Origin: an uncultured Chloroflexia bacterium | GTDB taxonomy: Bacteria > Chloroflexota > Ktedonobacteria > Ktedonobacterales > Ktedonobacteraceae | DNA: 64,000 nucleotides | Direction of reading: 5' to 3' | NCBI GenBank assembly: GCA_963727755.1 | Contig: CAVSHN010000008.1 | Location: 541,156 to 605,155 of the forward strand | Part shown: one piece after another, positions 9,351-61,127 of the stretch | How positions within the stretch are numbered: position 1 is the stretch's first letter | Layout of the letters: each line of letters starts with the position of its first letter | Made by a program: the position numbers and the translations under genes | The notes under the pieces: generated by a model | Seen by the model: only the letters and a program-made list of their open reading frames with translations | Database searches by the model: none | What the model was told of the DNA's origin: nothing

Positions 9351-9361
9351 AATCTGGCAAG

Positions 9362-9783: not shown

Positions 9784-10636
9784 TCCTGACAGATGGGTTC
9801 TATTCTAGGGAGTGACATCTCCCCATGACTAATGAATGTTAAGAAATTAACAGGGTAAAGAGATAAGCATCGTATATACCCTCTTAATTTTTTAAAGTTC
9901 ATAAGTCATGGGCTTCCCATCCTCACGAATGAGCTTTTCTGTTTCATCGGGGGTTGCCAGTCTGAGCTTTCGCCTTGAGCGGGTCTTATACTCCCTCCGC
10001 AAACCTAAATTCCCCTGAGCCCCAGGGTACTTACTCAGGAGCCACTTTGGGCTGCTGACAACGCTATTCTAGCAGATCTATCGAAAATTATACACTGGAA
10101 TAGGCAAAAGGTACCCCGGTGCCCAACCCCCATTAAAGGACGCGTCATTCATCCCCATAGCTGAAGCAAGGGGTCTTCTGACGCAAGAAGAATAAGCGCC
10201 GACACGTCAAGGGTTTCCCACAAAACCCAAAACTGTCCCTCTTTTCTCCTATGAGAAAGTGCAAACTTCTGTTAAAATAAAATCAAAATGACAGGCACAA
10301 AAAAGCTAGAGATCCTGCCACCTCCGGTCCTACTAAAACGTATAAAGGGAAAGGCTGTTTAATTTGACTTACCAAATTATCCAAGAATTTCTAGAGAATC
10401 CGGCCCTCAGGGACTAGAATGAAAGGAGGACTTGCGTTATAATTGGAATAGGAATAATTTCCAACTTGATATTGTTGCTTTCTAGAAGAGACAGGATACA
10501 TGTCATTGAATTCCTCTTACTCGGCGCCCGGACAGAACGGTCTGACGGAGGCCCGTTTTCCCTGAGTGTAGGACCATACAAATGAACAGATATCTTGCTG
10601 CTTAGGATATACTTACTTTTTCCTGGAGGGCGCACA

Positions 10637-20048: not shown

Positions 20049-20149
20049 CCACGAGATACTCGATCTGCCAAACTTGGCAGCTAAGTAATAAATACTTTAT
20101 AAAGGAGGAGGTACGCATACCAACTTTTGATTTTCCTCTTCTGAAATCT

Positions 20150-20239
20150 TTCACTGTTTCGTGTGCATGAGAGACGTTTAGACGTTGAGACATTTGAGCA
20201 CATACCATTGAGATTTATTCTCCAGCAAAGGACAAACTC
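20150..20239 (+). promoter_or_regulatory. Conserved ~90-nt promoter/leader module, first of five copies
   Basis: GTTTCGTGTGCATGAGAGACGTTTAGACGTTGAGACATTTGAGCACATACCATTGAGATTTATTCTCCAGCAAAGGACAAACTCATG recurs at 20930-21029, 21560-21654, 22240-22331 and 23275-23364. It contains AGACGTT direct repeats and a candidate TTGAGC-N16-TATTCT promoter. Confidence 0.5.
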
Positions 20240-20746
20240 ATGATACCAAGAGAAATATCAAGATCAAAAGATGTAGCTGCGAATTCAACAGGAAAATCAG
20301 GAAAATCAGGTCCAAGACCTTGGGAATTAGATCAGTACATATACAAAGAGTCGTCAAAAGACGATGGTGGGCCGTCACACGGTGACCCAAGGCTCGAGTT
20401 CGCACTGCAAAGTTACGATCGGCACCAAACTGACAGCGACTTCAGACCCTCTGATGACTACGGATATGGCTACCCTGTCTTCGGCACCATGCCCGACCTC
20501 TCTGCTCGCGCTTCCTCCGCTAGCGAGTTGGGGACTCTGGCAGGGGGGGAGAGGTGGGATGAACTGTGGAATAAGTCACTAAAAGGATTAGAATGGGAAG
20601 GCTCTGAGAAGTGGAATCGAAAGTGGGATGTTGGAATGCGCCACCGCTTGTCATCTAAAGACACAGATAGACAATGGAATGGCTCTAAGCAGTGGAAGCA
20701 AAAGTGGGATGATGCAACGAGTTGGGGACGCACATATGGGAAATAG
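20240..20746 (+). CDS. Small acidic protein, tandem-array paralog 1 (conserved N-terminal ~100 aa, Trp-rich repeated tail)
   Basis: Shares GPRPWELDQYIYKE...DPRLE...QTDSDFRPSDDYGYGYPVFG...GTLAGG with the four paralogs. Tail has WxxxW repeats. Confidence 0.55.
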   Translation: MIPREISRSKDVAANSTGKSGKSGPRPWELDQYIYKESSKDDGGPSHGDPRLEFALQSYDRHQTDSDFRPSDDYGYGYPVFGTMPDLSARASSASELGTLAGGERWDELWNKSLKGLEWEGSEKWNRKWDVGMRHRLSSKDTDRQWNGSKQWKQKWDDATSWGRTYGK

Positions 20747-21026
20747 AAATGCATCAGGGACAATGTGAAATCAAAAGTGGGATGCCGGAGCTAGTTATGG
20801 ACGCTACAATTTGTCATCTGAAGACTTGAGTAGACAATGGAGTGGCACTAAGAGGCTGTGTGCAAAGGAAAGAGCAACGAGCCCAATCGTCCACGTTGCT
20901 TGATCAGGGAGCCGAAGCCTTCGTTTTCTGAAATTTTTCACTGTTTCGTGTGCATGAGAGACGTTTAGACGTTGAGACATTTGGGCACATACCGTTGAGA
21001 TTTATTCTCCAGCAAAGGACAAACTC

Positions 21027-21440
21027 ATGATGACAAGAGAAATATCAAGATCAAAAGATATAACTGCGAATTCGACAGAAAAATCAGGAAAAGCAGGCCC
21101 AAGACCTTGGGAATTAGATAAGTACATATACAAAGAGTCGTCAAAAGACGATGGTGGGCCGTCGCACTGTGACCCAAGGCTCGAGTTAGCGCTGCAAAGT
21201 CACGGTCAGCACCAAACTGACAGCGACTTCAGACCCTCTGATGACTACGGATATGGCTACCCTGTCTTCGGCACCATGCCCGACCTCAATGCTCGCGCTT
21301 CCAGAGCAAGCGATCAGGGGACTCTGGCAGGATGTTGGAAGAAACCAAAAGTCCATCAAATTATTCGTTTTCCTATTCCTGATACTGCTAATCCTACCCC
21401 TGATTCTACTGCTACTTCTACTCCTACTGCTGGTAATTAG
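21027..21440 (+). CDS. Tandem-array paralog 2 (Pro/Thr-rich tail)
   Basis: Same conserved N-terminal region. Tail is PIPDTANPTPDSTATSTPTAGN. Confidence 0.55.
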   Translation: MMTREISRSKDITANSTEKSGKAGPRPWELDKYIYKESSKDDGGPSHCDPRLELALQSHGQHQTDSDFRPSDDYGYGYPVFGTMPDLNARASRASDQGTLAGCWKKPKVHQIIRFPIPDTANPTPDSTATSTPTAGN

Positions 21441-21651
21441 GATGGAGGAGAGAGAGCATGTTTAAAGATTTGTGTGAGCAGTTTAGCGTAAAGAGTGAGC
21501 AGATCAACCATTAATGGCAGCGCAGGCCGCTTCTGGCGCGACTGACAAAGCAAGATTCTTGTAAAATGTTTCGTGTGCATGAGAGACGTTTAGACGTTGA
21601 GACATTTGAGCACATACCGTTGAGATTTATTCTTCAAGAAAGGACAAACTC

Positions 21652-22215
21652 ATGGATCAAATACACCATAGAGATAAACCGCTAGAGAAAACGGCGAAGC
21701 TAACAGCAAAAGCAGGTCCAAAACCTTGGGATATAAAGCAGTACACATACCAGGAGCCAATAGATGATCAGAGGCCATTGCACGGTGACCCAAGGCTCGA
21801 GGTCGCACCGCAAAGTCACGGTCCGCACCAAGAGCAATTTGACAGCGACTTCTCATCCTCTGATGCTGACCACGAATATGGCTACCCTGTCTCCAGTAGC
21901 AGCTTCACGCCCGAATACTATGCTCGCACTTCCACCGCAAGCGATCTGGGGACTCTGGCAGGGAGTTTAAACGACAAAGAAATAGATGCAAAATACTATG
22001 GTCAGCATTCTCCAGACAACTCGCCGAATGGTCAGGGTTCATCGCGTGAAGCAACACGTAAAAAACATAGGCTGCTATATCCTCCTCGTAAATCACAACC
22101 AGCAGTTAGTCAGTGGCACAATCAACAACAACAACAAAAGGCTGCCGCCAGCAAACAGCGTGACAGTCAGGCTCAATCGAACAAAGGTCAGGCAAGCCAC
22201 CGGAAAAGTAAGTGA
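21652..22215 (+). CDS. Tandem-array paralog 3 (Gln/Ser/Lys-rich tail)
   Basis: MDQIHHRDKPLEKTAKLTAKAGPKPWDIKQYTYQEPIDD... matches the conserved N-terminal region. Confidence 0.55.
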   Translation: MDQIHHRDKPLEKTAKLTAKAGPKPWDIKQYTYQEPIDDQRPLHGDPRLEVAPQSHGPHQEQFDSDFSSSDADHEYGYPVSSSSFTPEYYARTSTASDLGTLAGSLNDKEIDAKYYGQHSPDNSPNGQGSSREATRKKHRLLYPPRKSQPAVSQWHNQQQQQKAAASKQRDSQAQSNKGQASHRKSK

Positions 22216-22328
22216 CACTTATATACAAGTCGAATTTTTCCAACGTTTCGTGTGCATGAGAGACGTTTAGACATTTAGACGTTTGCACACATACCATTGA
22301 GATTTATTCTTCAAGAAAGGACAAACTC

Positions 22329-22790
22329 ATGGATCAAATACACCATAGAGATAAACCGCTAGAGAGAACGGCGAAGCTAACAGCAAAAGCAGGTCCAAAA
22401 CCTTGGGATATAAAGCAGTACACATACCAGGAGCCAATAGATGATCAGAGGCCATTGCACGGTGACCCAAGGCTCGAGTTAGAGCTGCAAAGTCACGGTC
22501 CGCACCAAACTGACACCGACTTCAGACCCTCTGATGACTACGGATATGGCCACCCTGCCTTCGGTATCGGCTTCACACCCGAATTCGATGCTAGCGCTTC
22601 CACCGCAAGCGATCAAGGTACTCTGGCAGGGGGAGGATGTCTTGGTAAACCAAAGCCCCGCGATAGGTATCAGCAGCAGATGCAACGGGAGGCAAAGGCA
22701 ACTATGGATTATAGGATAGCTCGAAGAGAGTGGGAGGTGAAGAAAACAGATACGATGAACAAGAGGATGGAACGGCTACGGCCACGGTAA
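22329..22790 (+). CDS. Tandem-array paralog 4 (basic, possibly coiled-coil tail)
   Basis: Conserved N-terminal region as in paralog 3, then a KR-rich tail. Confidence 0.55.
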   Translation: MDQIHHRDKPLERTAKLTAKAGPKPWDIKQYTYQEPIDDQRPLHGDPRLELELQSHGPHQTDTDFRPSDDYGYGHPAFGIGFTPEFDASASTASDQGTLAGGGCLGKPKPRDRYQQQMQREAKATMDYRIARREWEVKKTDTMNKRMERLRPR

Positions 22791-23361
22791 GTGGTGGATA
22801 AAGGTCCTCCCGGCCTAGCAAAATGGGCATCCATTGGATTACCTTGTATCTATGAAAAAAAGAGATACGAGCACTCCACAAAAGATGGATGCCTGCGAAC
22901 AATTTTGCCCGAACTTGGAGTGCGAGTCAAGAGAGCAAATTGGACAGGGAAATATTGTCGGTCATGGCAGTAAGGTACTTGACGGCTATGAGACAACGAG
23001 AAAAAGCTAGATCTTCCAGATAGGAAACCGTCAGGAACCCGCTGGCTAAAGCCCTGACAATTATACACAAGTCTGATGAGCTTGCTTAGAAAGCGGCTCT
23101 CCAAGCATATTGCCACTGTGGAGCTTTCATAGAAGCTTCTGCATTGTGGACTAGCTTTTGGAGCGACTTCTCCAAAAATGTGTATAAAAATCAGGGCTAA
23201 AGCCAGGGGCTTGTGAGCAGCTCAACCATTGGTGGCAGAGCAGACCGCTTCTGGCGCGACTGACAAATCAAGATTCTTGTAAAATGTTTAGTGTGCATGA
23301 GAGACATTTAGACGTTTGAAAACATACCATTGAGATTTATTCTCCAAGAAAGGACAAACTC

Positions 23362-23838
23362 ATGGATCAAATACCCCATAGAGATAAACCGCTAGAGAGA
23401 ACGGCGAAGCTAACAGCAAAAACAGGTCCAAAACCTTGGGATATAAAGCAGTACACATACCAGGAGCCAATAGATGATCAGAGGCCATCGCACTGTGACC
23501 CAAGGTTGGAGGTCGCACCACAAAGTCACGATCCGCACCAAACTGACAGCGACTTCATACCATCTGATGACTACGGATATGGCCACCCTGCCTTCGGTAG
23601 CAGCTTCACACCCGAACTCGGCGCTAGCGATCCCTCCGCAAGCAATCAGGGGACTCTGGCAGGGGGAGGATGTCTTGGTAAACCAAAGGAGAATACGACG
23701 GAGCTGCAACGCAGGAAGCAACAAGGGCAAGACCAGATTAGGCGGAACACGCAACAAAGGTTGCAGCAACATAACAAGACAATAGAACAATTAGGGCAGA
23801 GGCGGCAGGAATATCGTGCGAAACGGGGAGCGCGGTAG
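23362..23838 (+). CDS. Tandem-array paralog 5 (basic Gln/Arg-rich tail)
   Basis: Conserved N-terminal region, then a QR-rich tail. Confidence 0.55.
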   Translation: MDQIPHRDKPLERTAKLTAKTGPKPWDIKQYTYQEPIDDQRPSHCDPRLEVAPQSHDPHQTDSDFIPSDDYGYGHPAFGSSFTPELGASDPSASNQGTLAGGGCLGKPKENTTELQRRKQQGQDQIRRNTQQRLQQHNKTIEQLGQRRQEYRAKRGAR

Positions 23839-23978
23839 TAGCAGGTAAGTGGTTACAGGTGAACTACCGTTTTGAGATAAGTCTGGCCCAAGCACAATCA
23901 TGTTGCTCAACATCTAGATCATTCTCTTGGTACTTGACGGCCATGAGACAATGAGAAAAAGCTAGATCTTCCAGATAG

Positions 23979-25168
<1,190 letters not shown>

Positions 25169-28359: not shown

Positions 28360-28557
28360 ATATGATATGATAAAATGATCTAAAATAGAAAGCTGTGAAT
28401 GCTCTGTTTAGCTTATTAGCCTGCTTACAGTTAACAGCCCATTCATCCCCCGTCTTTCAAGCGGGAGATGAATGGGCCTACCTTTTATGGGGCTTGGGCA
28501 CAGGGATACTTTTGGGTTTGCCCTTGACAGACGTGTCTACATATTCCATGTCTATAG

Positions 28558-29440
28558 ACATGGAATACATTCATGATAACCACACAGTCCATTTGATTGT
28601 GTACCACATTATCTGGTGTCCAAGAAGAAGGAGGAAGATACTTCAATGGTCCAGTTGCTAGTCGGCTTGAGCAAATCATCCATGAAGTTGCAAATGAGCA
28701 TGAGATGCCCAATCGGTATATAACCGATCCTTTGAGCTTGGCCGTATCCCCATTCTCAAAAAGCCCTTTGCGCAGTGGAATAACCAGAATTGGAAGCTGG
28801 AGATGAGTGAGACCCGATCCCACACAAAAGGAGGTTTGCTGGGCACACTCATCATTCCTATTTGGGACGGCACCAGAACCAGACAGATCAAAATTGCCTG
28901 TTGTGGTGAAATACCAGTAGGTGAGAAGGGCATCCTCCGTATCAAGAGGAAAAGCGAGAAATGGGTAGCGGATGCCACAACAACACTACCAGATGTTCAA
29001 CCGTTGCCTCGTGAGATCGTCATGGGAGTGGACACAGGCATCAAGGTCCCAGCAGTGGCCTATATCGCTGGTCAATCCGCAAGCATCGCAACAAAGCAGA
29101 TGATCGCACCTATGAATGTAGTGAGTGTGGATGGTTTGGCCATAGAGACATTGTGGGAGCAATCAACATCAGTCGCAGGACTGGCCTTGATGGTGATAGT
29201 CAAGGTGCCACGGGAGCCTCTGAGCTGCTCAACCCGTGGAAGGCCACCTGGGATGGCCTCATCTGGAAAGCGATGATCCTGAAGGTGAAAGCAGTTGAAG
29301 GGGAGCTGAACCGGAACCCCCGCTCTTTTAAGGCGGGGAGATCTCAGACAGACCACCTGCTAACGTTCTATAGGACCTATGCAGAAAATCTGCCGCCGCA
29401 CCCGTTTGGCTTTTCACCATCGTCTGTAAAGTCATAGGCA
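28558..29440 (+). mobile_element. Degenerate IS200/IS605-family element (tnpA remnant plus internally deleted tnpB remnant)
   Basis: TnpA N-terminus HTVHLIVYHIIWCPRRRRKIL then VASRLEQIIHEVANEHE after a frame break. TnpB-like RuvC-I region IVMGVDTGIKVPAVAY (28803..29276) and a TnpB C-terminal AINISRRTG signature (29153..29437). The TnpB central region is missing. Confidence 0.5.
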
Positions 29441-33391: not shown

Positions 33392-33499
33392 CAGAGTACC
33401 AAAACAGCCATGAGAGTACTTTAGTACCAAATTGAGTATTCATCTAACAGATTTATAGTACCCTTACCTTTGACTAAGTCAGCACACCTAGTAGTCAAG

Positions 33500-33958
33500 A
33501 ACCCCTGGCTAAAGCCTAGGGGCTTGCGAAACGGCTAGCGCAACGTAAGTTCTTGTCTAGTGGGCTCTCATTCAAGAGAGCAGCAGCGGTATGGGCTAAG
33601 AGATAGTGAAATCCCAGGCTCAAGTGCTAGGGAAAGTAACCGAAAGAGCGTTTGGATGCCACCCTAGTCTAAACCACCTCCTGCCACGCCGAAGCAGACG
33701 GTCTCGGACCTATGCCTGTACTGCAATCACGAAGGGTCATTGAACCTAGGCTTAGACCTAGCGTGCTCAACATCGAGCAAATGTTTTCTGGGCTTTCTCC
33801 TAAAAAGCCCGCCCCGCAAGGGAAAGGAACAAGCAAAGCAGAAAGGGGAGCAAGAGAGTGCTTACGCACAAGACAAGCTGGCCCATCGCCCGCCACTTGT
33901 CTTCCCCACATCCCCTTGCGTGCAGGGAGCCATTCCTCCCCTGCATGAATGACAGGGG
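33500..33958 (+). mobile_element. Miniature IS200/IS605-like element: same 5' hairpin and 3' end module as the IscB element, different interior
   Basis: 5' AACCCCTGGCTAAAGCCTAGGGGCTTGCGAAACGG after a TCAAG flank. The 3' ~150 nt is the reverse complement of 9366-9490, including the terminal cccctgcatgaatgacagggg hairpin. Confidence 0.45.
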
Positions 33959-34033
33959 TCTCTTGGCACATTTCTTATAATGCAATGTATTGTATCATTC
34001 TAGTATACGGGTACTCAAGAAAGCAAATCTGGC

Positions 34034-37000
34034 ATGCCTGGGAATAAACAAGTCTTTAGTACAGCACTGAATGCTGCTGAGCGCCTCCTTTGGGCTTGCC
34101 AATGGATACAGGCTCTGCAAGAATACCAACAAGCACTTGCTGAGTTCCCAGAAGACTTAACAGCTCGCAGCGGTCTCGGCTTCTGCTATATGCAGACCAA
34201 ACAATGGTCAAAAGCACTCGAGGAGTATGGATATGTCCTCAAGAGCGAGCCGAGTAATATTATCGCATTAAGTAAAATTGCCGAGTTGTATGGTATTTTG
34301 AATCAACGTGAGGACGCCTATCATGCGTACCTCCATCTGGCGAATCTCTACTCGCAAGCTGGCCAGGGAACACGCGCAGAGGCAGCGTGGCAGAAAGCTG
34401 TTCAACTGTCCCCCGGCAAACCAGAGCCCCATGAACGGCTCGCAAGCTACTATTTTGAGAAAAAAGATATCGCTCAGATGATTCAACAACGATTGGCAGC
34501 TGCGCAGGACTACCTTCTGTGCAATAAGATCTCATCAGCACAGAAACAATGTGAAGAAGTACTGCGTGCAGATGCAACAAACGCTCAAGCACAACAGATA
34601 CTCGTGCAAATCCAGGATAAAGAAAATGAGGCATCCAATCCATTAGCACTGATAGCAGGAGTATCATCGGTTAACAATGCAGATAGCCCTGTGAATAGAA
34701 TATCAGCAGCCAAAACTGATTCTATCCTATCTAGGGATAACTCTGCAAAAGAAACTTTTCCATTGGGAAATATAAGCGGAGGGAATACTGGCATGATGAA
34801 TAATATGGGCGGCGCAGGTAATTATGGCAACGTTGGCAATTTAGGACCAACTGCAACCATGAACGGGAATGGTGGAGGCATAAATTCTGCCCCTCAGCAG
34901 AGGATCACTGCCAGCCAAGTCACAGAAGCATTGCAACAGGCGCAAATATATCAAGACCAGGGCCGTTTCAACGATGCTATCAACCTCTGCGAACAGATCC
35001 TGGCAAGTGGCTTTGACCGACCAGACGCACGATACTTCCTAGGTTGGCTTTATCAGGAACAACAGCGCTGGGACGAGGCCGTTGAACAGTTCCAGGCTTT
35101 ACTCAACGACCCTGACTACGCACTCTCCTGCTACTACTCACTGGGGCAATGCTACCGAGCAGGCGGCGATTTACGCTCTGCCACCGTGCATTTCGACGAG
35201 GCCGTTGATCGCGTCAACCTCGACGCCCTGACGGTGGAAGAGTCCGATCAACTTGTTCAGCTCTGTCAAGAGGCCGCTGAGGCTCACCGCCTATTAGGCG
35301 AACAGGAACAAGCTTTCACGATCTATAATGCCTTACTTGGTTTCCTGCGCAGTCGTGGCTGGAATGATAAAGTTACGCAGGTCGAGTTCATGATTCAACA
35401 GGCACAGAATATTCTTCCTGCCGACGCTTCTTCAATGACGGGTATGGCACAGACTCAGTCGCCACAGATACCAGCCGATGAAGTCCTCGAAGCTCCCACA
35501 GTAGCTGTCAATACAGCTAACATAGCCAGTAACACACAGTCATCACCTGCTCCAGCCAGTTCTACCGGTGACTTACCTGATTGGCTCACAGGCATTTTGA
35601 ATGATGAGGACAAAACACAAAGGGCCAATAAGCCTGCTACCCCTCCCCCTGCGGCCAAACCAGCACCAGCCATCGAGCAGCCAGCACCCATACAACCTCA
35701 GACTGCTACACCACAAGCATCGGTTGCCCCTCCTGTCGCACCAATAGAACCACCCACGACTACTACACCTGCAAAATCGACTTCCTGGTTAACAGACGAT
35801 GCCAATGCCAACGCCACGCGTGTTCTTCCACCAGAACCCCCGGTTCCTGCTAAACTCAACCACCTGCCGCACCAATACCCGTGCCACAACCACCTGCTGC
35901 ACCGCAGGCTGCTTCCACTGCCCCCATTCCAGAGCCAGCATTTCAGCCGCCTGCCGATGTATTCATACAACCAACATTTAGTGCTCCATCAATTCCTCCA
36001 GTAGATCAGCCTGCTTTTTCCATACTAAGCACTTCTTTCACCCCAATCCCTCCTACACAGCTAAACGGAGCTGCCGCCGCCGAAGATCTGCTTAACCAAA
36101 TGGCTGGAGCACAAGCTAATGAGCTAAATAACGTTGCTGACGCCGTTCTAGCCAGCACAGCTTCATTGCCAGAAAATCTACGCCTGCAAGTCGTACGCTC
36201 CATGCAGAACATTCAGAAGTATATCAACCACGGACTACTGACCCCAGCAAAGGAAGAGTGCTTGCGCGTAATCAATATCGCACCACAATATCTAGATGTA
36301 CACCAAGTACTATGCGAAATCTATGTCCGTGAGGGAAAGATCGATCAAGCCATCCCCAAATACGCTATTCTGGTCGATACCTACATCGCCAACGGGCGTA
36401 TCGAAGATGCTACCGCAACTTACCGACGCATCCTAGAACTCGACCCCAATAACATTACGTATCGCATGCGCCTAATCAATATGCTCTCGGCCCAGGGCAA
36501 CACAGAAGACTTACTGCGCGAGCGTACCTTGGCTGCCAGAGTCTTATCTCCGCCTTGGCTATATGGACCGCGCAATGACTGAGCTTGAACAGGCACTGCT
36601 GGAGAATCCGACCAATGTGCCAACTCGTCTGAACTATGCGCTGGCACTACAAAAGCTAGGACGTACCCAGGAGGCCATTGCAGAATACCAGCGCGTGTTA
36701 CAAGTTGATCCGCGCAATACCACTGCCCTTGTCCGTTGGCATGTCGCGATGGTCACAAACCTAGGTACGCCCCGAGGCACATCGCTCGAGGTGCTGTCAC
36801 GTATCCGCTGGCAATTGCGTGGTCCAGGACAGAAATATGCAGACTTTGTGACACGTGAGTATCTACAGGCATTAGATCTCTACCCCAACAATGCCGATGT
36901 GCATTATACATTAGGACAAATCTACCAGCAGAGTGGTCAATACGACCGTGCACTCGACTCATACCTCCTAGCCACACGCGATAATGCTGTCGAGATCCTG

Positions 37001-37972
37001 GCTCGCGTCAGCGCCGCTCAAACATTGTTTGCACAGGGCAGACCTGAACCAGCTATGCAGCACCTTGAACAGGTTTTACAACAAGTGCGACAATCTCCCA
37101 CTGCAATTGACCTCGCTACATGGGCCGCACGTCCGCGTGAAGAAGGCGAAGAACACCAAGCTCCCGAAATGGAAATCTCCTTGCAGCTTGTACAGGCCTA
37201 TAAACGCACAGGTCGTCAAGAGCAGATGCAAGCCCTTCTGCGCCAAGTGAAACAGCTTAAGACTGGACAGGACGAGGTAGTTTCCACCCTAGCCGATATA
37301 TCAAACCTGAATAACGACCCTGAAACCACCATGCGCGAATACCTCAAGTTGGTCAAACACTATCGCCAGAGCCGACAGCATGATAACGCACTCAAGACAT
37401 TGAATGAGATGATACGCTTTGCACCAGAGGACCCACGTACTCACGAAGAGCTGGCAGATATCTACATCAAGCGAGGCATGTTGGAAGAGGGGATGGCAGA
37501 ATTACGCATCCTGGCAGATATCTATCTCCGCAACGGCAATCTAGAGCAATCTGCTACGAAAATTCAACACATTGGCAACATGTACGCCCAGATGGGCAAC
37601 AACGATGAAGCACTATCTACCCTCTTCCGCGCCGCAGAGTTAGATAACAGCTCGATGGAACTGCTACGCGAGGTAGTTGGCCTGTGCCTGCAACTCGGCC
37701 GCAACCAAGATGCTGCTCGCTACCAGATTCAGATCGCCCGCCACTATGTTGCCACAGACCAGATCAAAGATGCTGTCGCAGCTCTCCAGCAATTGATTAC
37801 CATCGACCGCAACAATTATGAAGCCTATGACTTGCTAGGCCAAACCTACCAGTCTGTGGGTGAATATGAACAAGCCAGTCGTGTTTATCGCAACCTCGCC
37901 AAAATGAACCCCAGCAGTTCCACTGCCCGTGAACGACTAGCAACACTGCAAGAGTTACGTGCAGCCCGTTAA
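34034..37972 (+). CDS. Very large TPR-repeat protein with a Pro/Ala/Thr-rich low-complexity linker, two frame interruptions
   Basis: TPR repeats in 34034..36004 and 36563..37972. ORF 35881..36582 bridges them. Breaks are at the AAA run 35852-35854 and at tt in gtcttatctcc (about 36545). Confidence 0.55.
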
Positions 37973-39541: not shown

Positions 39542-40522
39542 TTGCCGTGCGATATGACATTTGCGAAAACTTTGCTTAAGACGAGCCTATCCGTGGGTGG
39601 TATCCTCGGAACACTGGCGATTGTCAACAAAGTGACCGAAACCATGGCGGGCGAACTCGATACCGTATTAACTGGTGAAGAGCGTCGCTATCCCTGGAAA
39701 TATGGTGATGTGTTTTATAAGGTGCAAGGGGCCCGGGATGCTAAGCCACTTGTGCTCATCCATAGTCTAAGTCTAGGAGCTTCTTCTTACGAGTGGCGCA
39801 AAAATGCCGATGCGTTGGCTCAACAGTTCCGTGTCTACACACCAGACTTGCTGGGGTTTGGTCTCTCCGATCACCCAACGATCGATTACGACGCTGAACT
39901 CTACGCAGACCTGATTAGTGATTTTCTGAAGGAAACTATCGGTCAACCTGCGATCGTCGTTGCTCATGGCCTTACCAGTGCCTACGTAATTGCGGCAGCC
40001 TATCGTCGTCCCCAATTATTTGAGCGGCTGGTACTAGTGGAACCATCACCTATCATATTGGAAGAGGCTTATCCAGGCCCTCTCAGCTCCGCATGGAAGC
40101 TTCTCCTGCGAACCCCAATTGTGGGCCAGTTTATCTATAATCGGCTAACCTCTCGTCAGGCTATTTGCAGCTACTATGATAAGCAAGGCTACCACAATCC
40201 CGGCTTAATCACTGACGAGCTAGTTGAGTATATCTATACCAGTGCTCATCAGCCCAATAGCCGTTTTGCGATCGCCTCTCTTCTCAGCAATCACTTGAAT
40301 CTGGATGTGCAAGAACCTTTCAGTCATTTGAAAACCCCCGTGGTTGTCGTGTGGGGACGCGAAGGTACACTCGCCTCTTCCGAAGCGCGTGCTGCTTTCA
40401 AACGTGCCAATCCTGACATCGTCGTGGATATCATCGACAAAGCCAGACTGCACGTCCAGGATGAACAGGCTAATCAGTTCAACACTCTGATCCGCGAATT
40501 TGCTCCCACAACTGTGAGATGA
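39542..40522 (+). CDS. Alpha/beta-fold hydrolase
   Basis: Alpha/beta hydrolase-6 pattern (PLVLIHSLSLGASSYEW, VVAHGLTSAY, LVLVEPS). The nucleophile motif is atypical (GLTSA). Confidence 0.7.
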   Translation: MPCDMTFAKTLLKTSLSVGGILGTLAIVNKVTETMAGELDTVLTGEERRYPWKYGDVFYKVQGARDAKPLVLIHSLSLGASSYEWRKNADALAQQFRVYTPDLLGFGLSDHPTIDYDAELYADLISDFLKETIGQPAIVVAHGLTSAYVIAAAYRRPQLFERLVLVEPSPIILEEAYPGPLSSAWKLLLRTPIVGQFIYNRLTSRQAICSYYDKQGYHNPGLITDELVEYIYTSAHQPNSRFAIASLLSNHLNLDVQEPFSHLKTPVVVVWGREGTLASSEARAAFKRANPDIVVDIIDKARLHVQDEQANQFNTLIREFAPTTVR

Positions 40523-40554
40523 ATCCGAGAGTGACGAGATCGTGAGCATAAAGG

Positions 40555-40589
40555 GAGATCTCCACACCCTAGCTGAGTGTGGAGATCTC
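40555..40589. terminator. 13-bp perfect stem hairpin (gagatctccacac...gtgtggagatctc) 3' of the hydrolase gene
   Basis: Seen directly. A weaker copy is at 42264-42298. Confidence 0.45.
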
Positions 40590-40711
40590 CCACAATCTGC
40601 ATCTACGCCCCATCCGCAGTGCGATGAGCGACCTAGAAGATCTATGCCCATCCATCTCTCAGCGGGGATTCATTTTTCCCGATTCCCACATGGGTTCCTG
40701 CTATCAGTCAC

Positions 40712-41797
40712 TCACTGAATATTACAACAGTCATCATCAATACAACAGTCACCACCACCACCACTGCCACCACCACTATTGTAATCCACGGCACCATCTA
40801 CATATCCCTCCGTGTAGTTATCACGCCTTCGACGTTCAGCTCTAGAGGGCCTATTACTCTCGTCATCGCGACAACAGCAGTCCCAGCAAGACTTCAAAGT
40901 ATCCTCAATCCTCTTAACAAGCTTCTTCCCATCCTCCTTAAAACCCTTCCAGTCTATACACCCCACTTCCACAGCTTCGCCACCTCTTCTATCGTGTTCA
41001 GGCTGTACACGCGCATTGCGCAACTCTCCCAATTCTCGCGAATATTGCAAATATTGCAGATACTGCGACTCTCGCTCAATCTGCTCGTTCAGCTGACTCA
41101 TTTGTTCATACCGCTCGCGCCACTCTCTCGCCTGATCAGATTCGCTCAATTCATGCAAAGGTTGCATGTTCATCCTTGAAAGTCCGGGTAACTGCAAATA
41201 TTCTCGATACGCCTCATGTTTCTCTCGTAATCTCTTCGGTTCTGAGGTGCCACCATCTGAGGAAACAGCTCTACCTACTTCCTGATAAGCAATAACGGCG
41301 GATAAGGTAAATGCCGCATTCCGAAAATCTGTGTTGCTGCCTTTACTAAAAATGAGCGCTGGCTTTTTCTTCAGCCGATCGATAAATTCCTTTACATAAT
41401 CATTATTCGTCAATAGCGGCTCGAGTATACCTGCTACTACTGCTTGATCATACTTACCAGCTACTATGTCGTTAACATGTGGGCCAATCGACGGGTTACC
41501 CATGAAGTTTCTAATGTTCCTCTGAGCTTTCTCATCATTCAGCGCACTGCGAAATAGTTCGCCAACCGATTTATCAGACTTTAGAAGAATCTTCCGGAGA
41601 GTCTTCTCGAAGGACGTCAACGCTCGTGCTTCTGTCCCTTTGCTCTCGCTCGACTCTGGCCGAGACAAAGGAGAATCCTGCAAAGGCATCCCCTTGACGC
41701 CATCTCTTCTCATACGTTGAAGCCTGTTTTCACTAGATGAGCTACTTCCTACAGTCCCATTTACTCCATGATACGCTGATAATACAACTTTATCCAT
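40712..41797 (-). CDS. Hypothetical protein with an extreme Cys/Asp/Gly-rich C-terminal tail, cassette gene 1
   Basis: 361 aa. Tail is CWDCCCRDD...GGGSGGGGDCCIDDDCCNIQ. Preceded by a conserved ~400-nt upstream module. Confidence 0.45.
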   Translation of the reverse strand: MDKVVLSAYHGVNGTVGSSSSSENRLQRMRRDGVKGMPLQDSPLSRPESSESKGTEARALTSFEKTLRKILLKSDKSVGELFRSALNDEKAQRNIRNFMGNPSIGPHVNDIVAGKYDQAVVAGILEPLLTNNDYVKEFIDRLKKKPALIFSKGSNTDFRNAAFTLSAVIAYQEVGRAVSSDGGTSEPKRLREKHEAYREYLQLPGLSRMNMQPLHELSESDQAREWRERYEQMSQLNEQIERESQYLQYLQYSRELGELRNARVQPEHDRRGGEAVEVGCIDWKGFKEDGKKLVKRIEDTLKSCWDCCCRDDESNRPSRAERRRRDNYTEGYVDGAVDYNSGGGSGGGGDCCIDDDCCNIQ

Positions 41798-42386
41798 ATG
41801 CCACTCCTTTTACTTCTTGATAGAGTTCAAACTCATCCAATCTCGCTCGTGTGAAACGCTTCACACCATTTTCCAAAATCAACACAACATGCAGGCTCAG
41901 AGCTGGCATGAGCAATGGCAGTCTCTCTCCGTGATGTTGACAGCTCACGATCCAGAGATTCCTCCTCCAGCCATTCCCTCAACTGGAGAACTGTTCGGCA
42001 GTGCCCTCGACTCTCATACTCAGCAATAGCCCTAGCTTTAACACTACCTTCATCACTGCATGCCCGTCAAGATGACAAAGAGGTGACAAATCCTACAGGA
42101 CGAGATAAGCGTGCCAATCCTGACATCGTTATGCAGATCATTGACAAAGCCAGACTGCACATCCAAGATGAACAGACTGATCAGTTCAATCATCCGATCC
42201 GCGAACTTGCTCCCACAACGGTGAGATGAACCAGAGAGTGACGAGATCGTAAGCACAAAGAGAGACCTTCACACCCTAGCTGAGTGTGGAGATCTCCCAC
42301 AGCATGCCTCTACGCATCAAACAATCTGTTGTACAACGAGCAGCTGGGAGAATCTATGCTCCTCCACTCCTTAGCGAGCTGCCATT

Positions 42387-44048
42387 CTATGGATTCTCGG
42401 GTGAGAAGTCCTCTAACGAGCTTGAACCGTTTGTGCGACGCGAAGGCCCAGGATCGTCATACTCACTTGGTTGTTGCGTTCCTCTCTCGTTGTCTACCAT
42501 ACTTCGTACCATTGCACGCCTGATTCCCTCATCGTTGCGGGGACCCATTCTTTCCGATGGTATGGGAAGCAACGGCGGGTTATCACTGTTTCTGCGATCG
42601 ACCTGCCCAGAGCTAGAACCCTCTTCGAACAAAGATTGAGGCCTACCACCCGGATATCCCTCGATACCGCCCCGGCTTTCTAGCTGTTGTCTCTCAAGAT
42701 CGCGTTCTAGAGATTTCCCATCGGGTTTAGGTTCATAAGGGACAGGTATAGCGGCAAGTATACGATTGGAGTCTATACGCTCGAGCAGATAACCAATGAC
42801 CATTGGTATATCTCTTGGTTGCACTTCCCTATTTTGATTCCTCTGCTCACCTTGATTCCCCTGCCTATTTTGATTCCTCTGCTCATATCGATAGCAACAC
42901 CATAACAAAACACACAACATAGCCACGCCTACCATACTAATACTCCAAGAAATCCGGTCAGAGGATTTATTTGGTGTATCATTTGTTGATGGTGTATCAT
43001 CTGCTAATGGTATATTATCTGCTAATAGTACTTCCGCATGTTGCTGTACTTCTTGTATCATTCTCTTCGTCAGAGACAATTTTCGAATGTCTTCCAAAGA
43101 ATAGAGATCATGCGCTCTAAGCTCATTATCCTGTATTAAATGTTTAAAGTTTTCCATATACTTCTTATTGTTGAACACCTTTTTGAGGACTTGCAGAGCC
43201 TTCGGATTCTCCCATAACAAGATGGCTCGTTCGACATTCTCCTTATTCTTCAGCTCAGAGATGACACACCTCCTAACCCCTTCATCCTGTATTAAATCGT
43301 TAATACCTCCCATAACCTCCTTATCATTCTGCACCATTTGCAAGCATTTGCGAGCCTCCGGATGCTCCTTGAGAAAAGCAGCGCAAGTTCTCAAGGTGTC
43401 AAACTCCTCCCTACTCAGCTTGAGAGACTCTGCCCTTTCGCTCTTGTCCTGCTTTAGCTGATCTGGATGAGCATCTGTTACGGATCGAGAAGTCTTCTCA
43501 CCAAGCGTCACCTTCCTCGAACGAAAATCAAGAGCTGTCTCCCTGTCATCTTTTCTCTGACCCTCTCCTTGATGCAAGCCCTTGGAAGCTTGCTCACCTT
43601 CTCTGGCCCATTTATCAATATCTTCAGCCAAGTGAGGCCATAGCTTACGTAACGGCGAGTCCTCGTCGGGAACTCCCAAGTTTTTATTTGTCCCATCTGG
43701 ATCAGATGACCCTGGGGTATCCTGGGATAATTTCCTCTCTGGCAGTCCCTCAATGCAGTTGGCTCGCTGCTCAGGCACTGCCAGAGAAGAAGATGGTCGA
43801 TCCGTTAGCTCCTTGCCGCCCCCTAGAGCAAGAGCTGTATCAGAAGCTCCAGGCGGTGAGACACCCTCGGCACGACTTATCCCCGAAGCTCCTTGGACAG
43901 CCAGAACAGCCAAGCCAAGACGGTACGCTCCTGCAAATGCAACACCTACATACTTTCGCATTTTATCAGAAGCGGTACCGCTTCCATCTTTTGGCTCTCC
44001 TTTCTCGCTAGACTTTGATTCATTTTCACTATTTACGTCTCCTGACAT
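42387..44048 (-). CDS. Hypothetical membrane-anchored protein, cassette gene 2
   Basis: 553 aa. N-terminus MSGDVNSENESK then a hydrophobic helix (YVGVAFAGAYRLGLAVLAV), helical repeats in the middle, a second TM, and a low-complexity Q/N/R-rich C-terminus. Confidence 0.45.
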   Translation of the reverse strand: MSGDVNSENESKSSEKGEPKDGSGTASDKMRKYVGVAFAGAYRLGLAVLAVQGASGISRAEGVSPPGASDTALALGGGKELTDRPSSSLAVPEQRANCIEGLPERKLSQDTPGSSDPDGTNKNLGVPDEDSPLRKLWPHLAEDIDKWAREGEQASKGLHQGEGQRKDDRETALDFRSRKVTLGEKTSRSVTDAHPDQLKQDKSERAESLKLSREEFDTLRTCAAFLKEHPEARKCLQMVQNDKEVMGGINDLIQDEGVRRCVISELKNKENVERAILLWENPKALQVLKKVFNNKKYMENFKHLIQDNELRAHDLYSLEDIRKLSLTKRMIQEVQQHAEVLLADNIPLADDTPSTNDTPNKSSDRISWSISMVGVAMLCVLLWCCYRYEQRNQNRQGNQGEQRNQNREVQPRDIPMVIGYLLERIDSNRILAAIPVPYEPKPDGKSLERDLERQQLESRGGIEGYPGGRPQSLFEEGSSSGQVDRRNSDNPPLLPIPSERMGPRNDEGIRRAMVRSMVDNERGTQQPSEYDDPGPSRRTNGSSSLEDFSPENP

Positions 44049-44449
44049 CCTTGTTTCTTTGAAATCCCAATTTTATACTCCTTTTACTTTTAATAGGTGT
44101 TCAAACTTATTCAATCTCATTCAGGCGAGACGCTTGACACCGTTTTTCAAAATCAACACAACATGTAGGCTCAGAGCAGGCATGAGCAATGGCAGTCTCT
44201 CTCCGTGATGTTAACAGCTCACGATCCAGAGATTCCTCCTCCAGCCATTCCCTCAACTGGAGAACTGTTCGGCTGTGTCCTCGACTCTCATACTCAGCAA
44301 TAGCCCTAGCTTTAACACTACCTTCATCACTATATGCCTGTCAAGATGACAAAGAGATGACAAGGTGACAGCTCATACAGACGAGATAAGCATGCCACTT
44401 CCTGACATCGTCGTGGATATCATCGACAAAGCCAGTCTCCAGCGGGGTT

Positions 44450-45010
44450 CTATGTTTTGCTACGAGAAGATCTCAACGAACCCCGCCGTGTGGCCTCCTC
44501 CAGACTAATTAGTTCGTCTTGGCCTTTTCCTTGTGCTTTCCTCCGCCGTGTCGTCTCCCCCAGAATGATTGGAGGACTCTGCTCGTCTTGGCCTTTTCCT
44601 CGCGCTTTCCACCTCCATGTCGTCTCCCCCAGAATGATTGGAGGACTCTGTTCGTCTTGGCCTTTCCTCCGTATCCCTCCTCGCCGTGTCGTCTCCCCCA
44701 GATGAGGACTTAGCATCCCCAACTCGCCTTTTCCTCGCGCTTTCCACCTCCGCGCCATCTCTCCCAGATGAGGACTCAGTATCCCCAACTCGCCTTTTCC
44801 TCGCGCTTTCCACCTCCATGTCGTCTCCTCCAGATGAGGACTTAGCATCCCCAACTCGCCTTTCACTCGCGCTTTCCACCTCCATATCGTCGCTCCCAGA
44901 TGAGGACTTATTATCCCCAACTCGCCTTTTATTCGTTTCTCCCTGGGCTGATGATATATCACGTCTCTTCGCAATATTTCGGGAAGGCTCCACCGATGAG
45001 CTTGCGCCAA
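44450..45010. repeat. Minisatellite of about eight units of 59-69 nt
   Basis: Units are cgtcttggccttttcctcgcgctttccacctccatgtcgtctccc(c)cagaWtga.... Unit length varies, and ORFs are open in four frames, so coding status is uncertain. Confidence 0.6.
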
Positions 45011-46579
45011 GACGCTTCTGCCCTGAAATTCACCGATGAATTAGCCTCGAGTTGTCGAGACGATGCCATTGGATTCAAACCTGCGTCCGGTACGTTGGAA
45101 GGAAGCATGTTCTCACCCATTTGGGACGATGGAGCCCAAGAGTAATCATGGAATTGAGAAGGCGCTTTTGCACGGGAGCAAGCCGGAACATCAGCTTTTT
45201 CCATCCTTAAGCTTTGAGATATTGTATCCGAATACATTTGATGAGGAGCAGTCATGCTGATCTCATCCCACTGTCTATTGCCATAGGGTCTTTGTCGCAT
45301 TCCACCGCCGTATCTCCTCCCTCCATTGCCAAAGGGCATTTGTCGCATTTCATCGTTGTATCCCCTCCTCTGTTCACGGTCCCTTGCTTCAGATGCAATA
45401 CGGGCGGCTCTTTGTACCTCACTGGAGGAAGCAGAGCCATCAGCTCGTCCCCACGATAAGCGTAGAGGCGCCGTGCAGAAATTTTTAATTGCAGTAACTC
45501 GTCTCCTGCAGGAGCTTGTAAGTCTCGCCAAATCGTCATATATAGGCTCTCTCAATGCCCATAATATAGTTCCACCTAATAATAATCCAATAGACGCGAA
45601 TGACTTTGGCCAGTCTACATTTCTACCGTTTTCACAATGAGATATGCCCAATGCATCTTTACAACAATTGTAGTAATGGACCAGATATTCGCCTTTGCGA
45701 TATGCCTCATAGGATCTATACGGCTTACAATACTCCTCAACTTGAGGGTATTGAGACTTTCCAACCTCCTTATTCTTTTCAAAACTCTTACTGTCTTCCA
45801 CAACTCCCTCATCATCTATTAAATTTTTATTTTGCTTACTAATCTTTTTATCGTTAATCTCCCCTTTGAGGCGCTTCCAAGCCTCTGGATTTTCCTTGAG
45901 ATAGTCAACTAAAGACTTAACAACCTCCCCTGGAACCTCTGTCCTTTTGCTCTCGCGATGCTCTTGTGATGGAGTCTCCATTGCGGATTCGAGCAGCCTT
46001 CTCACTAGGTGTTATCTTCTTTGAGTGGAGGTCAGGAGGGGTCTTTTCGCTAGGTGTTTCCTGACCCTCTCCTTGATGCAAGCCCTTGGAAGCTTGCTCA
46101 CCTTCTCTGGCGGCCCATTTATCAATATCTTCAGCCAAGTGAGGCCATAGCTTACGTAACGGCGAGTCCTCGTTGGGAACTCCCAAGTTTTTATTTGTCC
46201 CATCTGGATCAGATGACCCTGCGGTATCCTGGGATAATTTCCTCTCTGGCAGTCCCTCAATGCAGTTGGCTCGCTGATCGGGCGCTACTTGAAAAGAAGG
46301 TCTTTGATCCGTTAGACCTTTGCTGTCCATCGGAACAAGAGCAGAGCCAGAAGCTTCAGGCGTTGAGACACCCTCGACACAACTTATCCCCGAAAAAGCT
46401 ACTTGGACAGCCAGAGCAGCCACGCCAAGACGGTACGCTCCTGCGAATGCAACACCTATATACTTCTGCATTTTATCAAAATCGGTATCGCATCCATCTT
46501 TTGAATTTGCTTTCTCGCTAGACTTTGATTCATGTTCACTATTTACGTCTCCTGACATCCTTATTTCTTCGAATCCCAT
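44959..46579 (-). CDS. Paralog of cassette gene 2, frame interrupted
   Basis: ORF 45917..46579 is about 75% identical to the N-terminus of the 553-aa protein. ORF 44959..46005 aligns to its central helical repeats (LKENPEAWKRLKGEINDK versus LKEHPEARKCLQMVQNDK). The frames meet near 45960-46010. Confidence 0.4.
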
Positions 46580-47078
46580 TTTTACGCTCCTTTTACTTTT
46601 AACAGATATTCAAACTCTTTCAAACTCATTCAATCTCGTTCAGGCGAGACGCTTCACACCGTTTTTCAAAATCAACACAATACATTGGCTCAGAGCTGGT
46701 ATGGGCAATGGCAGTCTCTCTCCATGATGTTGACAACTCACGGTCAAGAGATCACGCCTCCTGCCATTCCCTCAACTGGAGAACTGTTCGGCTGTGCCCT
46801 CGACTCTCATACTCAGCAACAGCCCTAGCTTTCATCATACCTTCATCACTGCATGCTTGCCAAGATGACAAAGAGGTGACATTGTCATGTAGATCATCGA
46901 CAAAGCCAGACAGGTGAGGTTGATCTTCTTGCGTGGAGATTGCCCACGGGAAGCGGGAACGATAAATGAAACTGATGGAAATTCTGAGGAGTATTGGTCA
47001 AAGCACCCGCTTGCCTAACGCCAGCGGGCGCAATAAATCGGGTATGCGCCGCAAATCTTATGCGCGTTTTCCCCCTGA

Positions 47079-57422: not shown

Positions 57423-57914
57423 CTATTCCCCTTGTGGCTGTGGCAATCGACCAAGTATCGTTTTCAGCAGTTGCCCATGCTTACGCTGATTTTCCTTAAT
57501 CTCGCTTTGGGTGCGTTCAATCCTATCAAGACTTTTATCATGCCCATCAAGCACTTGTTCAATCCTGTCCAGGCGTTTATCATGCCCATCAAGCATTCGT
57601 TCAATCCTGTCAAAGCGCTTATCATGCCCATCAAGTATTCGTTCAATCCTGTCAAAGCGTTTACCATACCTCTCAAGCGCTTGTTCAACGCCATCAAAGC
57701 GCTCCCTTACATCGCCTATATCGAGCGTAAGGCCATTGACAGCACCGATGATCTGCTGAAGATTGAATTTATGACGTTGTGAGAGTTTTATAAGTGCCTC
57801 CTCGTTTTTGATGATATCACCGCAGAGCTGTTCAATATCTGTTACACGCTGTTCTAAGCTAGATTGATTGTCGTTGGGCAGGTTCATACAGGGTGTCCGT
57901 CCTTTCCTATGCAA
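57423..57914 (-). CDS. Coiled-coil protein with four 11-residue (33-nt) tandem repeats LDGHDKRFDRIER
   Basis: 33-nt DNA period at 57525-57690 is in frame. No known family. Confidence 0.45.
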   Translation of the reverse strand: MHRKGRTPCMNLPNDNQSSLEQRVTDIEQLCGDIIKNEEALIKLSQRHKFNLQQIIGAVNGLTLDIGDVRERFDGVEQALERYGKRFDRIERILDGHDKRFDRIERMLDGHDKRLDRIEQVLDGHDKSLDRIERTQSEIKENQRKHGQLLKTILGRLPQPQGE

Positions 57915-61008: not shown

Positions 61009-61127
61009 CACTGATAAGAGTTATGCTACCTAGTCGCGCCAGAGTGCCCCTTGCAAGAGCCTTGGGGGTGAATGGCGCTTCCTTTCGGGGTGGGTTGGGA
61101 TGTGTGGGCCGCGTAGGCGGCGTGTGC

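Follow-up and report, generated by a model that had tools for sequence, protein, structure and literature searches.

A probable PATE-like derivative of an IsrB element: a protein-less insertion with an omegaRNA gene in a Ktedonobacteraceae genome

Hirano et al. 2022 (PMC9581776) credit Altae-Tran et al. 2021 with the report of stand-alone omegaRNAs that work in trans with IscB, and PATE-like minimal IS200/IS605 elements encoding omegaRNAs were described by Meers et al. 2023 (bioRxiv 10.1101/2023.03.14.532601). According to Meers et al. 2023 and PMC9581776, the guides of IscB and IsrB lie 5' of the RNA scaffold and are transcribed from outside the element. Here we describe a 483-nt insertion without a protein gene, hereafter mini 2, in a stretch of 64,000 nt (the window) from an uncultured Chloroflexia bacterium of the family Ktedonobacteraceae (GenBank assembly GCA_963727755.1, contig CAVSHN010000008.1, positions 541,156 to 605,155). 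It lies between the genes for YajQ and for a giant tetratricopeptide repeat (TPR) protein. The window also holds a second miniature element, mini 1, and a full-length IscB element (Table 1).

We suggest that mini 2 is a non-autonomous, protein-less, PATE-like derivative of an IS200/IS605-family IsrB element that has kept a complete omegaRNA gene and both transposon ends, and we put the probability of this reading at about 0.8. The insertion has exact ends without duplication and lies beside the ATGA position of its family. It carries an RNA of the isrB-linked omegaRNA family and ends in the tail of an IsrB element.

As in the stand-alone omegaRNAs described in PMC9581776, there is a scaffold without an adjacent nuclease gene, and the nuclease is presumed to come from elsewhere. 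Those RNAs belong to IscB, whereas mini 2 is IsrB-type, longer by one more stem-loop and, as its empty site shows, an insertion with defined limits; its host lineage, the Ktedonobacteraceae, is rich in IscB and IsrB elements. With the PATEs of Meers et al. 2023, mini 2 has in common the lack of a protein gene, the retention of both ends and of the omegaRNA, a target-adjacent motif (TAM) position at one end, the absence of a duplication, and the need for both TnpA mobilisation and a nuclease in trans. The PATEs, however, come from Geobacillus and are related to the TnpB-encoding ISGst, whereas mini 2 would be an IsrB derivative with a 5' guide from outside and would need a host promoter.

An insertion bounded to the base

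We compared the contigs of relatives (L145 to L148) found through YajQ homologues at 95% and 86% identity, the YajQ of L145 being 95% identical. The gene order PSP1, Band_7, YajQ, giant TPR protein is kept in all of them, and the YajQ-TPR spacer measures 159-174 nt against 642 nt in the window. In L145, the spacer is uninterrupted at the site of mini 2 (the slash marks the site): it reads ...CCTAGTC/ATGATGCAATG..., and the window reads ...CCTAGTA(483 nt)ATAATGCAATG.... In a longer alignment, ...CACACCTAGTC/ATGATGCAATGTATTG... of L145 corresponds to ...CACACCTAGTA(GTCAAG ... ATTTCTT)ATAATGCAATGTATTG... of the window. The junction letters are CCTAGTC/ATGATGC in L145 against CCTAGTA(483 nt)ATAATGC, and a target duplication is absent. 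Thus, the empty site fixes both ends of mini 2 to the base, as those of a single insertion.

An earlier note on this DNA, written from the sequence alone, had seen in it a short, non-coding relative of the IscB-type elements of the window, within the IS200/IS605 group, which is borne out. The defined termini and the empty sites in relatives that it had looked ahead to are both present. Its 3' coordinate (33958) fell 18 nt short, which leaves 57 nt instead of 75 nt between mini 2 and the TPR start codon (34034).

The first base of the RNA scaffold, 33494, is also the first inserted base. Since the scaffold starts at the transposon end, the guide has to be drawn from the flanking DNA. The single open reading frame (ORF) inside mini 2 (33669-33971, minus strand, 100 aa) is without a Pfam match. 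Subterminal imperfect palindromes fold at both ends (33502-33522 and 33929-33967), and their arms covary between copies.

The RNA inside the insertion

HEARO is the Rfam family of the IscB omegaRNA. In a local permissive cmscan, its full model (positions 1-211) aligned to 33494-33744 with 45.9 bits (E 3.5e-8). This is below the Rfam gathering score of 83 bits, and the gathering-mode scan of the window returned two other HEARO RNAs, at 62463-62707 (-) in the IscB element and at 9539-9790 (-) in mini 1, where no gene stands behind it; they score 120-129 bits. The mini 2 RNA is therefore homologous to HEARO, yet not a member of HEARO (RF02033) by the Rfam criterion. Over a full-length alignment, it agrees with the model in the outer stem, in the first hairpin and in the core stem, but one stem-loop is shortened and another one is inserted.

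A second stand-alone copy with the same HEARO score and the same peculiarities was found in a Ktedonobacteraceae metagenome-assembled genome (MAG; L018, 3131-3349). From the blocks common to both copies we made a search pattern, CCACCCTA-N14-18-GCCACGCCGAAG, which matched at least 120 soil-metagenome contigs among the matches listed; all family counts below come from the listed matches of this one exact motif. In about 50 of the listed contigs, an ORF of 360-390 aa starts ~90 nt after the motif, with the N-terminus MRIPVVDTRGVPLMPC.... Its product contains the RRXRR domain and lacks HNH. Among solved structures, the nickase IsrB comes closest (8DMB, E 2.6e-47), and IscB structures align over the first ~110 residues only.

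We then scanned the window with a profile hidden Markov model of 37 non-redundant isrB-linked RNAs. The sole match was 33494-33763 (170 bits, E 1.1e-51, profile positions 1-233); the IscB omegaRNA reached 9.6 bits and mini 1 gave no match. Together with the HEARO homology, this identifies the interior of mini 2 as an IsrB-type omegaRNA.

The distance between AAACGGCTA and CCACCCTA is bimodal in the family, with a short form of 78-103 nt and a long form of 124-150 nt (~50 extra nt), and mini 2 belongs to the latter. We aligned 26 distinct RNAs of the long form and obtained 66 consensus base pairs, 36 of them with compensatory changes. The cells of these pairs were paired in 97.7% of cases, against 81.2% with shuffled partners and 35-40% with partners slid by 1-3 columns; for pairs with a compensatory change, the controls gave 24.6 (shuffled) and 2-11 (slid by 1-3 columns). 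In 500 shuffles, the percentage paired, the counts of compensatory pairs and the covariation score always stayed below the observed values. The frequent G-U pairs point to an RNA read from the (+) strand of mini 2.

The mini 2 copy keeps 63 of the 66 pairs, and two of the three exceptions arise from a misalignment of the first hairpin, which by itself folds well. At columns at least 90% conserved, it differs from the other 25 copies in 8 of 157, and four of these eight are two compensatory pairs. The isrB-linked omegaRNA family is a structured RNA under selection, and the mini 2 copy keeps the structure. Folding mini 2 alone was uninformative (z = -0.4), and the structure was taken from the homologues.

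We transferred the names S1, SL1 and SL2 by position from the DtIsrB omegaRNA (PMC9581776), so they are putative equivalents. S1 corresponds to GUCAGG/CCUGAC in mini 1 and to GUCAUG/CAUGAC in the IscB copy, and its variable position covaries across the long-form family (G-C in 21 copies, A-U in 5). For the extra stem-loop (33598-33650), a column-pair search yielded no helix, owing to indels. Complementary sequences that could form pseudoknots are present in mini 2, AACGGC with GCCG and ACCCU with AGGGU, and are invariant across the long-form sample; covariation is not possible there, partly because the core-motif search pattern had fixed these bases. By analogy with the IsrB scheme of PMC9581776, they would form two pseudoknots, one between SL2 and SL5 and one between SL4 and the region beside SL7. 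In the terminator-like stem (helix 12), four of five pairs show compensatory changes, and a conserved GUUUUC follows. The GGGCTTT..AAAGCCC hairpin behind it recurs in L058, where it stands ahead of the isrB ribosome-binding site and ATG, and shows compensating changes in other copies.

Likened by layout to the DtIsrB omegaRNA (PDB 8DMB; Hirano et al. 2022), mini 2 has the same S1/SL1/SL2 arrangement, pseudoknot-capable loops, a length of ~280-300 nt and an NTGA-type TAM in its family. It differs by the extra stem-loop, the terminator-like 3' hairpin and the lack of an isrB behind them.

These results bear on the structure proposed in the earlier note, namely two end modules of an IscB element around an unrelated cargo, with a TCA-N-G-like target on the 5' side. 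The ends do resemble those of the other copies. At the 5' end, ~33 nt rather than ~45 nt follow the layout of the two HEARO copies, with GTCA.GAACCC, a hairpin with compensating arm changes and then TAGGGGCTTG, and just 21 of these 33 bases are identical to mini 1. The 3' part is, as stated there, the reverse complement of the 3' part of mini 1 (~9350-9475, 79% over 139 nt, E 2.5e-25). However, the interior is homologous to HEARO and to omegaRNAs over its whole length: the middle is indeed different from the IscB-type copies, not as unrelated cargo but as the homologous guide-RNA scaffold of a sister nuclease on the same tail (IscB-type in mini 1, IsrB-type in mini 2). TCAAG, which was read as a flank like TCATG and TCAGG at the other copies, lies inside the inserted DNA. 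It pairs with CUUG 55 nt downstream in a covarying helix, and thus is the 5' strand of the outer RNA stem and not a target. Upstream of GTCA, the sequences of family members are unrelated to each other, with no conserved motif on the 5' side; the conserved flank is ATGA, at the 3' side. The empty site and the structure counts refute this model, which we regard as very improbable.

A generic palindromic repeat of the REP or BIME kind, with no IS200/IS605 relation, would also be short, intergenic and rich in hairpins, and the earlier note had allowed for a repeat of that type. Mini 2, on the contrary, has 483 nt with a specific structured RNA of 300 nt, full-length homologues that encode IsrB, and a duplication-free insertion at a fixed tetranucleotide. 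This is the least credible of the readings considered, with practically no probability left, and we take it as refuted.

Origin, target and host context

The tail of mini 2 matches the 3' end of a full-length IsrB element (L043) with 78% identity over 143 nt, and the tail of mini 1 matches the same place with 77%; in L043, the matched segment takes in the end of isrB. The outer stems of the tail palindrome change in a compensating way: GCCA/TGGC in mini 2, GGCAA/TTGCC in mini 1, and CTTTCT/AGAAAG or GCCTCT/AGAGGC in metagenome copies. In the motif-selected sample, an isrB of any kind accompanies 2 of the 26 long-form RNAs and 50 of the 69 short-form ones (Fisher p = 1e-8). In these two linked copies (L058 and L111), the long RNA and the same two features as in mini 2, the terminator-like hairpin and the GGGCC...GGCC hairpin, are followed by an isrB with stops at codons 99 and 89, and an intact isrB stands behind none of the 26. 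The IsrB-element tail and these intermediates mark mini 2 as an internal-deletion derivative. The deletion of isrB probably runs from just after the 3' hairpins of the RNA to ~140 nt before the element end. In mini 1, an IscB-type RNA with an IsrB-type tail suggests exchange between elements that share ends.

At least 24 long-form copies stand alone with unrelated flanks in soil metagenomes, and the window has one copy of this type. Two of them, L093 and L102, share 93% identity over the RNA region, against ~36% in the flanks. Pairs of metagenome contigs that share flanks, compared for selection on orthologous copies, were mostly near-identical strain variants and thus uninformative.

Besides, some IsrB-type omegaRNAs (Ktedonobacter racemifer L152 at 2240-2290, L072 and L047) start with ATGTGGGTAAGAATCAG and then a hairpin, and not with GTCA.GAACCCC. 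This start may be either a different 5' end variant or a 5' truncation recurring at independent loci. One contig (L129) has two isrB-linked copies in inverted orientation, with surroundings 98-99% identical.

On the target side, ATGA is found 3' of the end hairpin at a fixed distance of 13-17 nt in 19 of 20 non-redundant isrB-linked elements (~6% expected by chance). It also follows the element end in 15 of 18 long-form copies, in mini 1 and in the K. racemifer IsrB element. The TAM of DtIsrB is NTGA/TTGA, with the G at the third position read by R323 and required (PMC9581776), and in the published geometry the omegaRNA side is the right end of the transposon and the TAM is beside the other end (Meers et al. 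2023). The position of ATGA fits both. Mini 2 itself is followed by ATAA, as is the long-form copy of L093. Its donor joint, as we reconstructed it, would read GTCAGCACACCTAGTA and then the four bases of the TAM position (ATGA or ATAA).

In the host DNA left of mini 2, a consensus scan found a promoter-like site (Table 1). Its -10-like hexamer, TATAGT, and the surrounding block are invariant in the empty spacers of the four relatives. Mini 2 thereby lies in the 5' leader of the TPR gene, with the promoter-like site on one side and the start codon on the other. Transcription from this site could begin ~26-28 nt before the scaffold, and that flank would be the guide. As the earlier note had observed for its miniature elements, mini 2 is located 5' of a gene in the orientation of the gene, and this generalises: among 34 non-redundant stand-alone relatives, co-orientation prevails by 25 to 3 for the closest ORF downstream and by 13 to 8 for the closest one upstream. 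The 25:3 ratio fits the published argument for transcription entering from outside (Meers et al. 2023).

The same position would suit a domesticated leader, in which mini 2 would now serve the host apart from IsrB, either by controlling the TPR gene in cis (as a regulatory RNA or attenuator) or as a small RNA in its own right. The place between a conserved promoter-like box and the TPR start, the sense-oriented terminator-like hairpin and the co-oriented genes behind the stand-alone relatives could all be read in this way. We consider it improbable, since the downstream genes of the relatives are mutually unrelated (lipoyl synthase, kinase-like, MFS, hydrolases and others), close relatives are without the element at this locus, and what is conserved coincides exactly with the features of IsrB omegaRNAs and of transposon ends. 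Moreover, the orientation bias is expected if the guide is transcribed from outside.

Other observations concern the spacer and the TPR gene. At 33392-33470 and in the spacers of L145 to L148, blocks are invariant at 86-95% protein identity and include two TAGTACC motifs (ACTTTAGTACCA and TTTATAGTACCCTTA); they are a candidate operator or promoter for TPR expression. The TPR gene itself (34034-37972, +) is split into three overlapping ORFs (34034-36004, 35881-36582 and 36563-37972), with frame changes at ~35836-35956 and near 36537. In L146 and L148, its homologue is one uninterrupted ORF of 1305-1309 aa. The split gene is either a pseudogene or a sequencing error, and it could be connected with a polar insertion in its leader.

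Returning to the PATE-like derivative, its life cycle would be as follows. A Y1 transposase (TnpA) from elsewhere in the genome would have inserted mini 2 as single-stranded DNA, 5' of ATGA in the TPR leader. Transcription from the host promoter would run through ~26 nt of flank, the guide, into the scaffold, and would end in part at the terminator-like hairpin of mini 2. The omegaRNA would load onto an IsrB encoded by another element. After excision, the rejoined site, with guide match and TAM, would be nicked and repaired from the sister copy, and the element would be retained (a mechanism taken from the literature). The protein can be shared and the guide is site-specific, so minis would keep the RNA and lose the gene.

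The cognate protein is plausible in the lineage. One IsrB has an omegaRNA with the first 75 nt in common with mini 2, and homologues of this protein at 75-84% identity go under the source names K. racemifer and Ktedonobacteraceae MAGs. The closest relatives of the IscB of the window are Ktedonobacteraceae IscB proteins (59-68% identical), and the YajQ and dUTPase homologues carry the same family name.

Several points weigh against this reading. The 64-kb window holds no IsrB-like coding sequence and no intact tnpA but only a frameshifted fragment of ~50 codons (28560-28705), in a search with an approximate IS608 TnpA sequence; supply of IsrB and TnpA in trans is assumed. ATAA lacks the third-position G read by R323, and therefore self-targeting of the mini 2 donor joint may fail; ATAA may also block cleavage and excision by TnpA. 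One pair of the terminator-like stem is A.C in mini 2. The promoter scan gave two sites against 0.8 +/- 0.9 in shuffles, which is not significant alone. The metagenome proportions may be biased by the single exact motif that selected the sample and by the restriction to the matches listed. Finally, expression of the mini 2 RNA, its binding to IsrB and nicking beside an NTGA-type TAM are predictions by analogy.

Part of this would also fit an inert relic, that is, the same element as a fixed, unused copy, neither excised nor protected, whose RNA, if made, has no role. The ATAA, the weakened terminator-like stem, the lack of isrB and of intact tnpA in the window and the TPR gene split in three frames, which fits relaxed constraint, would be expected from it. 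However, the RNA is nearly intact, with four uncompensated changes in 157 conserved columns and both pseudoknot sequences in place, and the copy of L093 also sits at ATAA, which may then be a tolerated site and not decay. We regard a relic as possible but doubtful. For a PATE-like mini 2 with an ATAA TAM, the retention step, and perhaps also TnpA excision, may no longer work.

Related elements in the window and significance

The coordinates of mini 2, its parts and the related elements are collected in Table 1.

Table 1. Features of mini 2 and of related elements, in window coordinates.
Feature	Position	Strand	Basis or remark
Mini 2, whole inserted element	33494-33976	+	No protein gene, no target-site duplication; empty site in L145
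Promoter-like site TTGAGT-16-TATAGT	33432-33459	+	Consensus scan; host DNA left of mini 2
Left flank, putative guide source (CTAAGTCAGCACACCTAGTA)	33474-33493	+	Host DNA abutting the first inserted base in the empty-site alignment
IsrB-type omegaRNA scaffold, long variant, through terminator-like hairpin and U-tract	33494-33789	+	HEARO, profile, covariation
Guide-adaptor region	33494-33557	+	S1, SL1, SL2; helices 1-3 covary
S1 outer stem, GUCAAGAA with UUCUUGUC	33494-33501 with 33550-33557	+	Covarying
SL1, also transposon-end hairpin	33502-33522	+	Folds as DNA or RNA, z = -2.55
SL2, loop AAACGGCTA	33523-33549	+	Long-form alignment
Extra stem-loop (~50 nt), long variant against short	33598-33650	+	Compensating changes by eye: UCC..GGA, CCA..UGG, CCCC..GGGG
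Core	33658-33739	+	Loops GCCACCCTAG (33658-33667) and GCCACGCCGAAGC (33683-33695); single-stranded GAAGGGTCA (33731-33739)
Terminator-like hairpin TGCTCAACATCGAGCA, then AATGTTTTCT	33764-33789	+	Scan; helix 12 of the long-form alignment
Two small hairpins, GGGCTTT..AAAGCCC and CCC-GCAA-GGG	33790-33822	+	Fold; putative deletion junction directly after
Tail, last ~140 nt of IsrB element (isrB reading-frame end and transposon end)	33832-33976	+	Similarity to L043; common to mini 1
Subterminal imperfect palindrome GCCA TTCCT CCCCTG..CAGGGG TCTCT TGGC	33929-33967	+	Fold; outer stem covaries
Target/TAM position	33977-33980	+	ATAA in mini 2; ATGA in the L145 empty site and most relatives
Mini 1, IscB-type omegaRNA and tail common with mini 2	9348-9790	-	HEARO 129 bits; empty sites in L150 and L151
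Full-length IscB element, more divergent tail, 3' boundary approximate	61030-62707	-	HEARO 120 bits; Pfam RRXRR and HNH

Mini 1 has an empty site as well, ...GCATCT/ATGAACC..., against ...CCCATCT(GTCAGG...CCAGATTTTG)ATGAACC... in the window, again with no duplication. The alignments of this empty site and of mini 2 with mini 1 were read by eye; MAFFT had misaligned the former and misplaced the 5' end in the latter. Mini 1 is inserted exactly before the dut start codon, with the ATG of ATGA being the dut start. In relatives, a good promoter for dut (TTGACG-17-TAGAAT) ends ~11 nt before the ATG, and dut looks almost leaderless. The insertion of mini 1 has added 443 nt between this promoter and the dut ATG (9344-9830, -), before which no clear ribosome-binding site is seen, and only a few nt of flank would be usable as a guide from the dut promoter. 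About 330 nt upstream of mini 1, a stretch of 64 nt (10122-10184, +) resembles the IscB-element tail at 75% identity (E 3.5e-5) and may be a solitary transposon-end remnant.

The IscB element comprises an omegaRNA (62463-62707) and iscB (61128-62429), with a product of 433 aa. Some 40 nt beyond its 3' end, GTCAGCACTTCTAGTA at 60977-60992 (-) matches the putative 16-nt guide of mini 2 in 14 of 16 positions. We take it as a chance match: it is compatible with chance (0.37 expected at <= 3 mismatches), is followed by CAAG and not ATGA, and BLAST seeds a 10-mer only.

An IS200/IS605 transposase remnant lies at 28439-28705 (+), with ~50 N-terminal codons (MEYIHDNHTVHLIVYHIIWCPRRRRKIL), a frameshift, NGPVASRLEQIIHEVANEHE and then a truncation; Pfam did not recognise its ORFs. 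It is preceded by an imperfect palindrome, GCCCATTCATCCCCCG..CGGGAGATGAATGGGC (28439-28478), that resembles the end hairpins of the minis. Other, unrelated repeat families in the window are five diverged units of ~0.7-1 kb (20133-23984), three or four units of ~2.5 kb with 66/69-nt tandem repeats (40400-46915, including 44514-44935) and a 42-nt tandem repeat (57472-57723).

More tentatively, the long forms might be a long-lived, self-sustaining, guide-only lineage, that is, hyperparasites borrowing IsrB and TnpA, with the extra stem-loop and the terminator-like hairpin as adaptations and selection at the RNA level. They would be preferentially retained in 5' leaders of host genes; the promoter of such a gene would supply the guide, and the gene in turn would come under the polar effect of the element. 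The tail common to mini 1 and mini 2 would reflect modular exchange between nuclease systems. We find this scenario rather less likely than its alternatives taken together.

Stand-alone omegaRNAs and omegaRNA-bearing PATEs are already known, and mini 2 would be a well-defined, fairly ordinary case of them. What is new is the IsrB-type RNA, the longer variant that never stands before an intact isrB in 26 copies, and a tail common with an IscB-type mini. In our reading, mini 2 is a guide-only OMEGA element bounded to the base, with its empty site, TAM position and host promoter context visible, and it would mean that stand-alone omegaRNAs, published for IscB, occur with the nickase IsrB as well. 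The strong bias towards co-oriented downstream genes supports a dependence of the stand-alone RNAs on host promoters. The current model is unchanged, and is mostly confirmed in a new lineage. The elements with intact isrB, those with a long-form RNA and a disrupted isrB, and the RNA-only minis would together form a decay series, which illustrates how RNA-guided transposon nucleases may lose the protein gene and the site-specific guide RNA persist.

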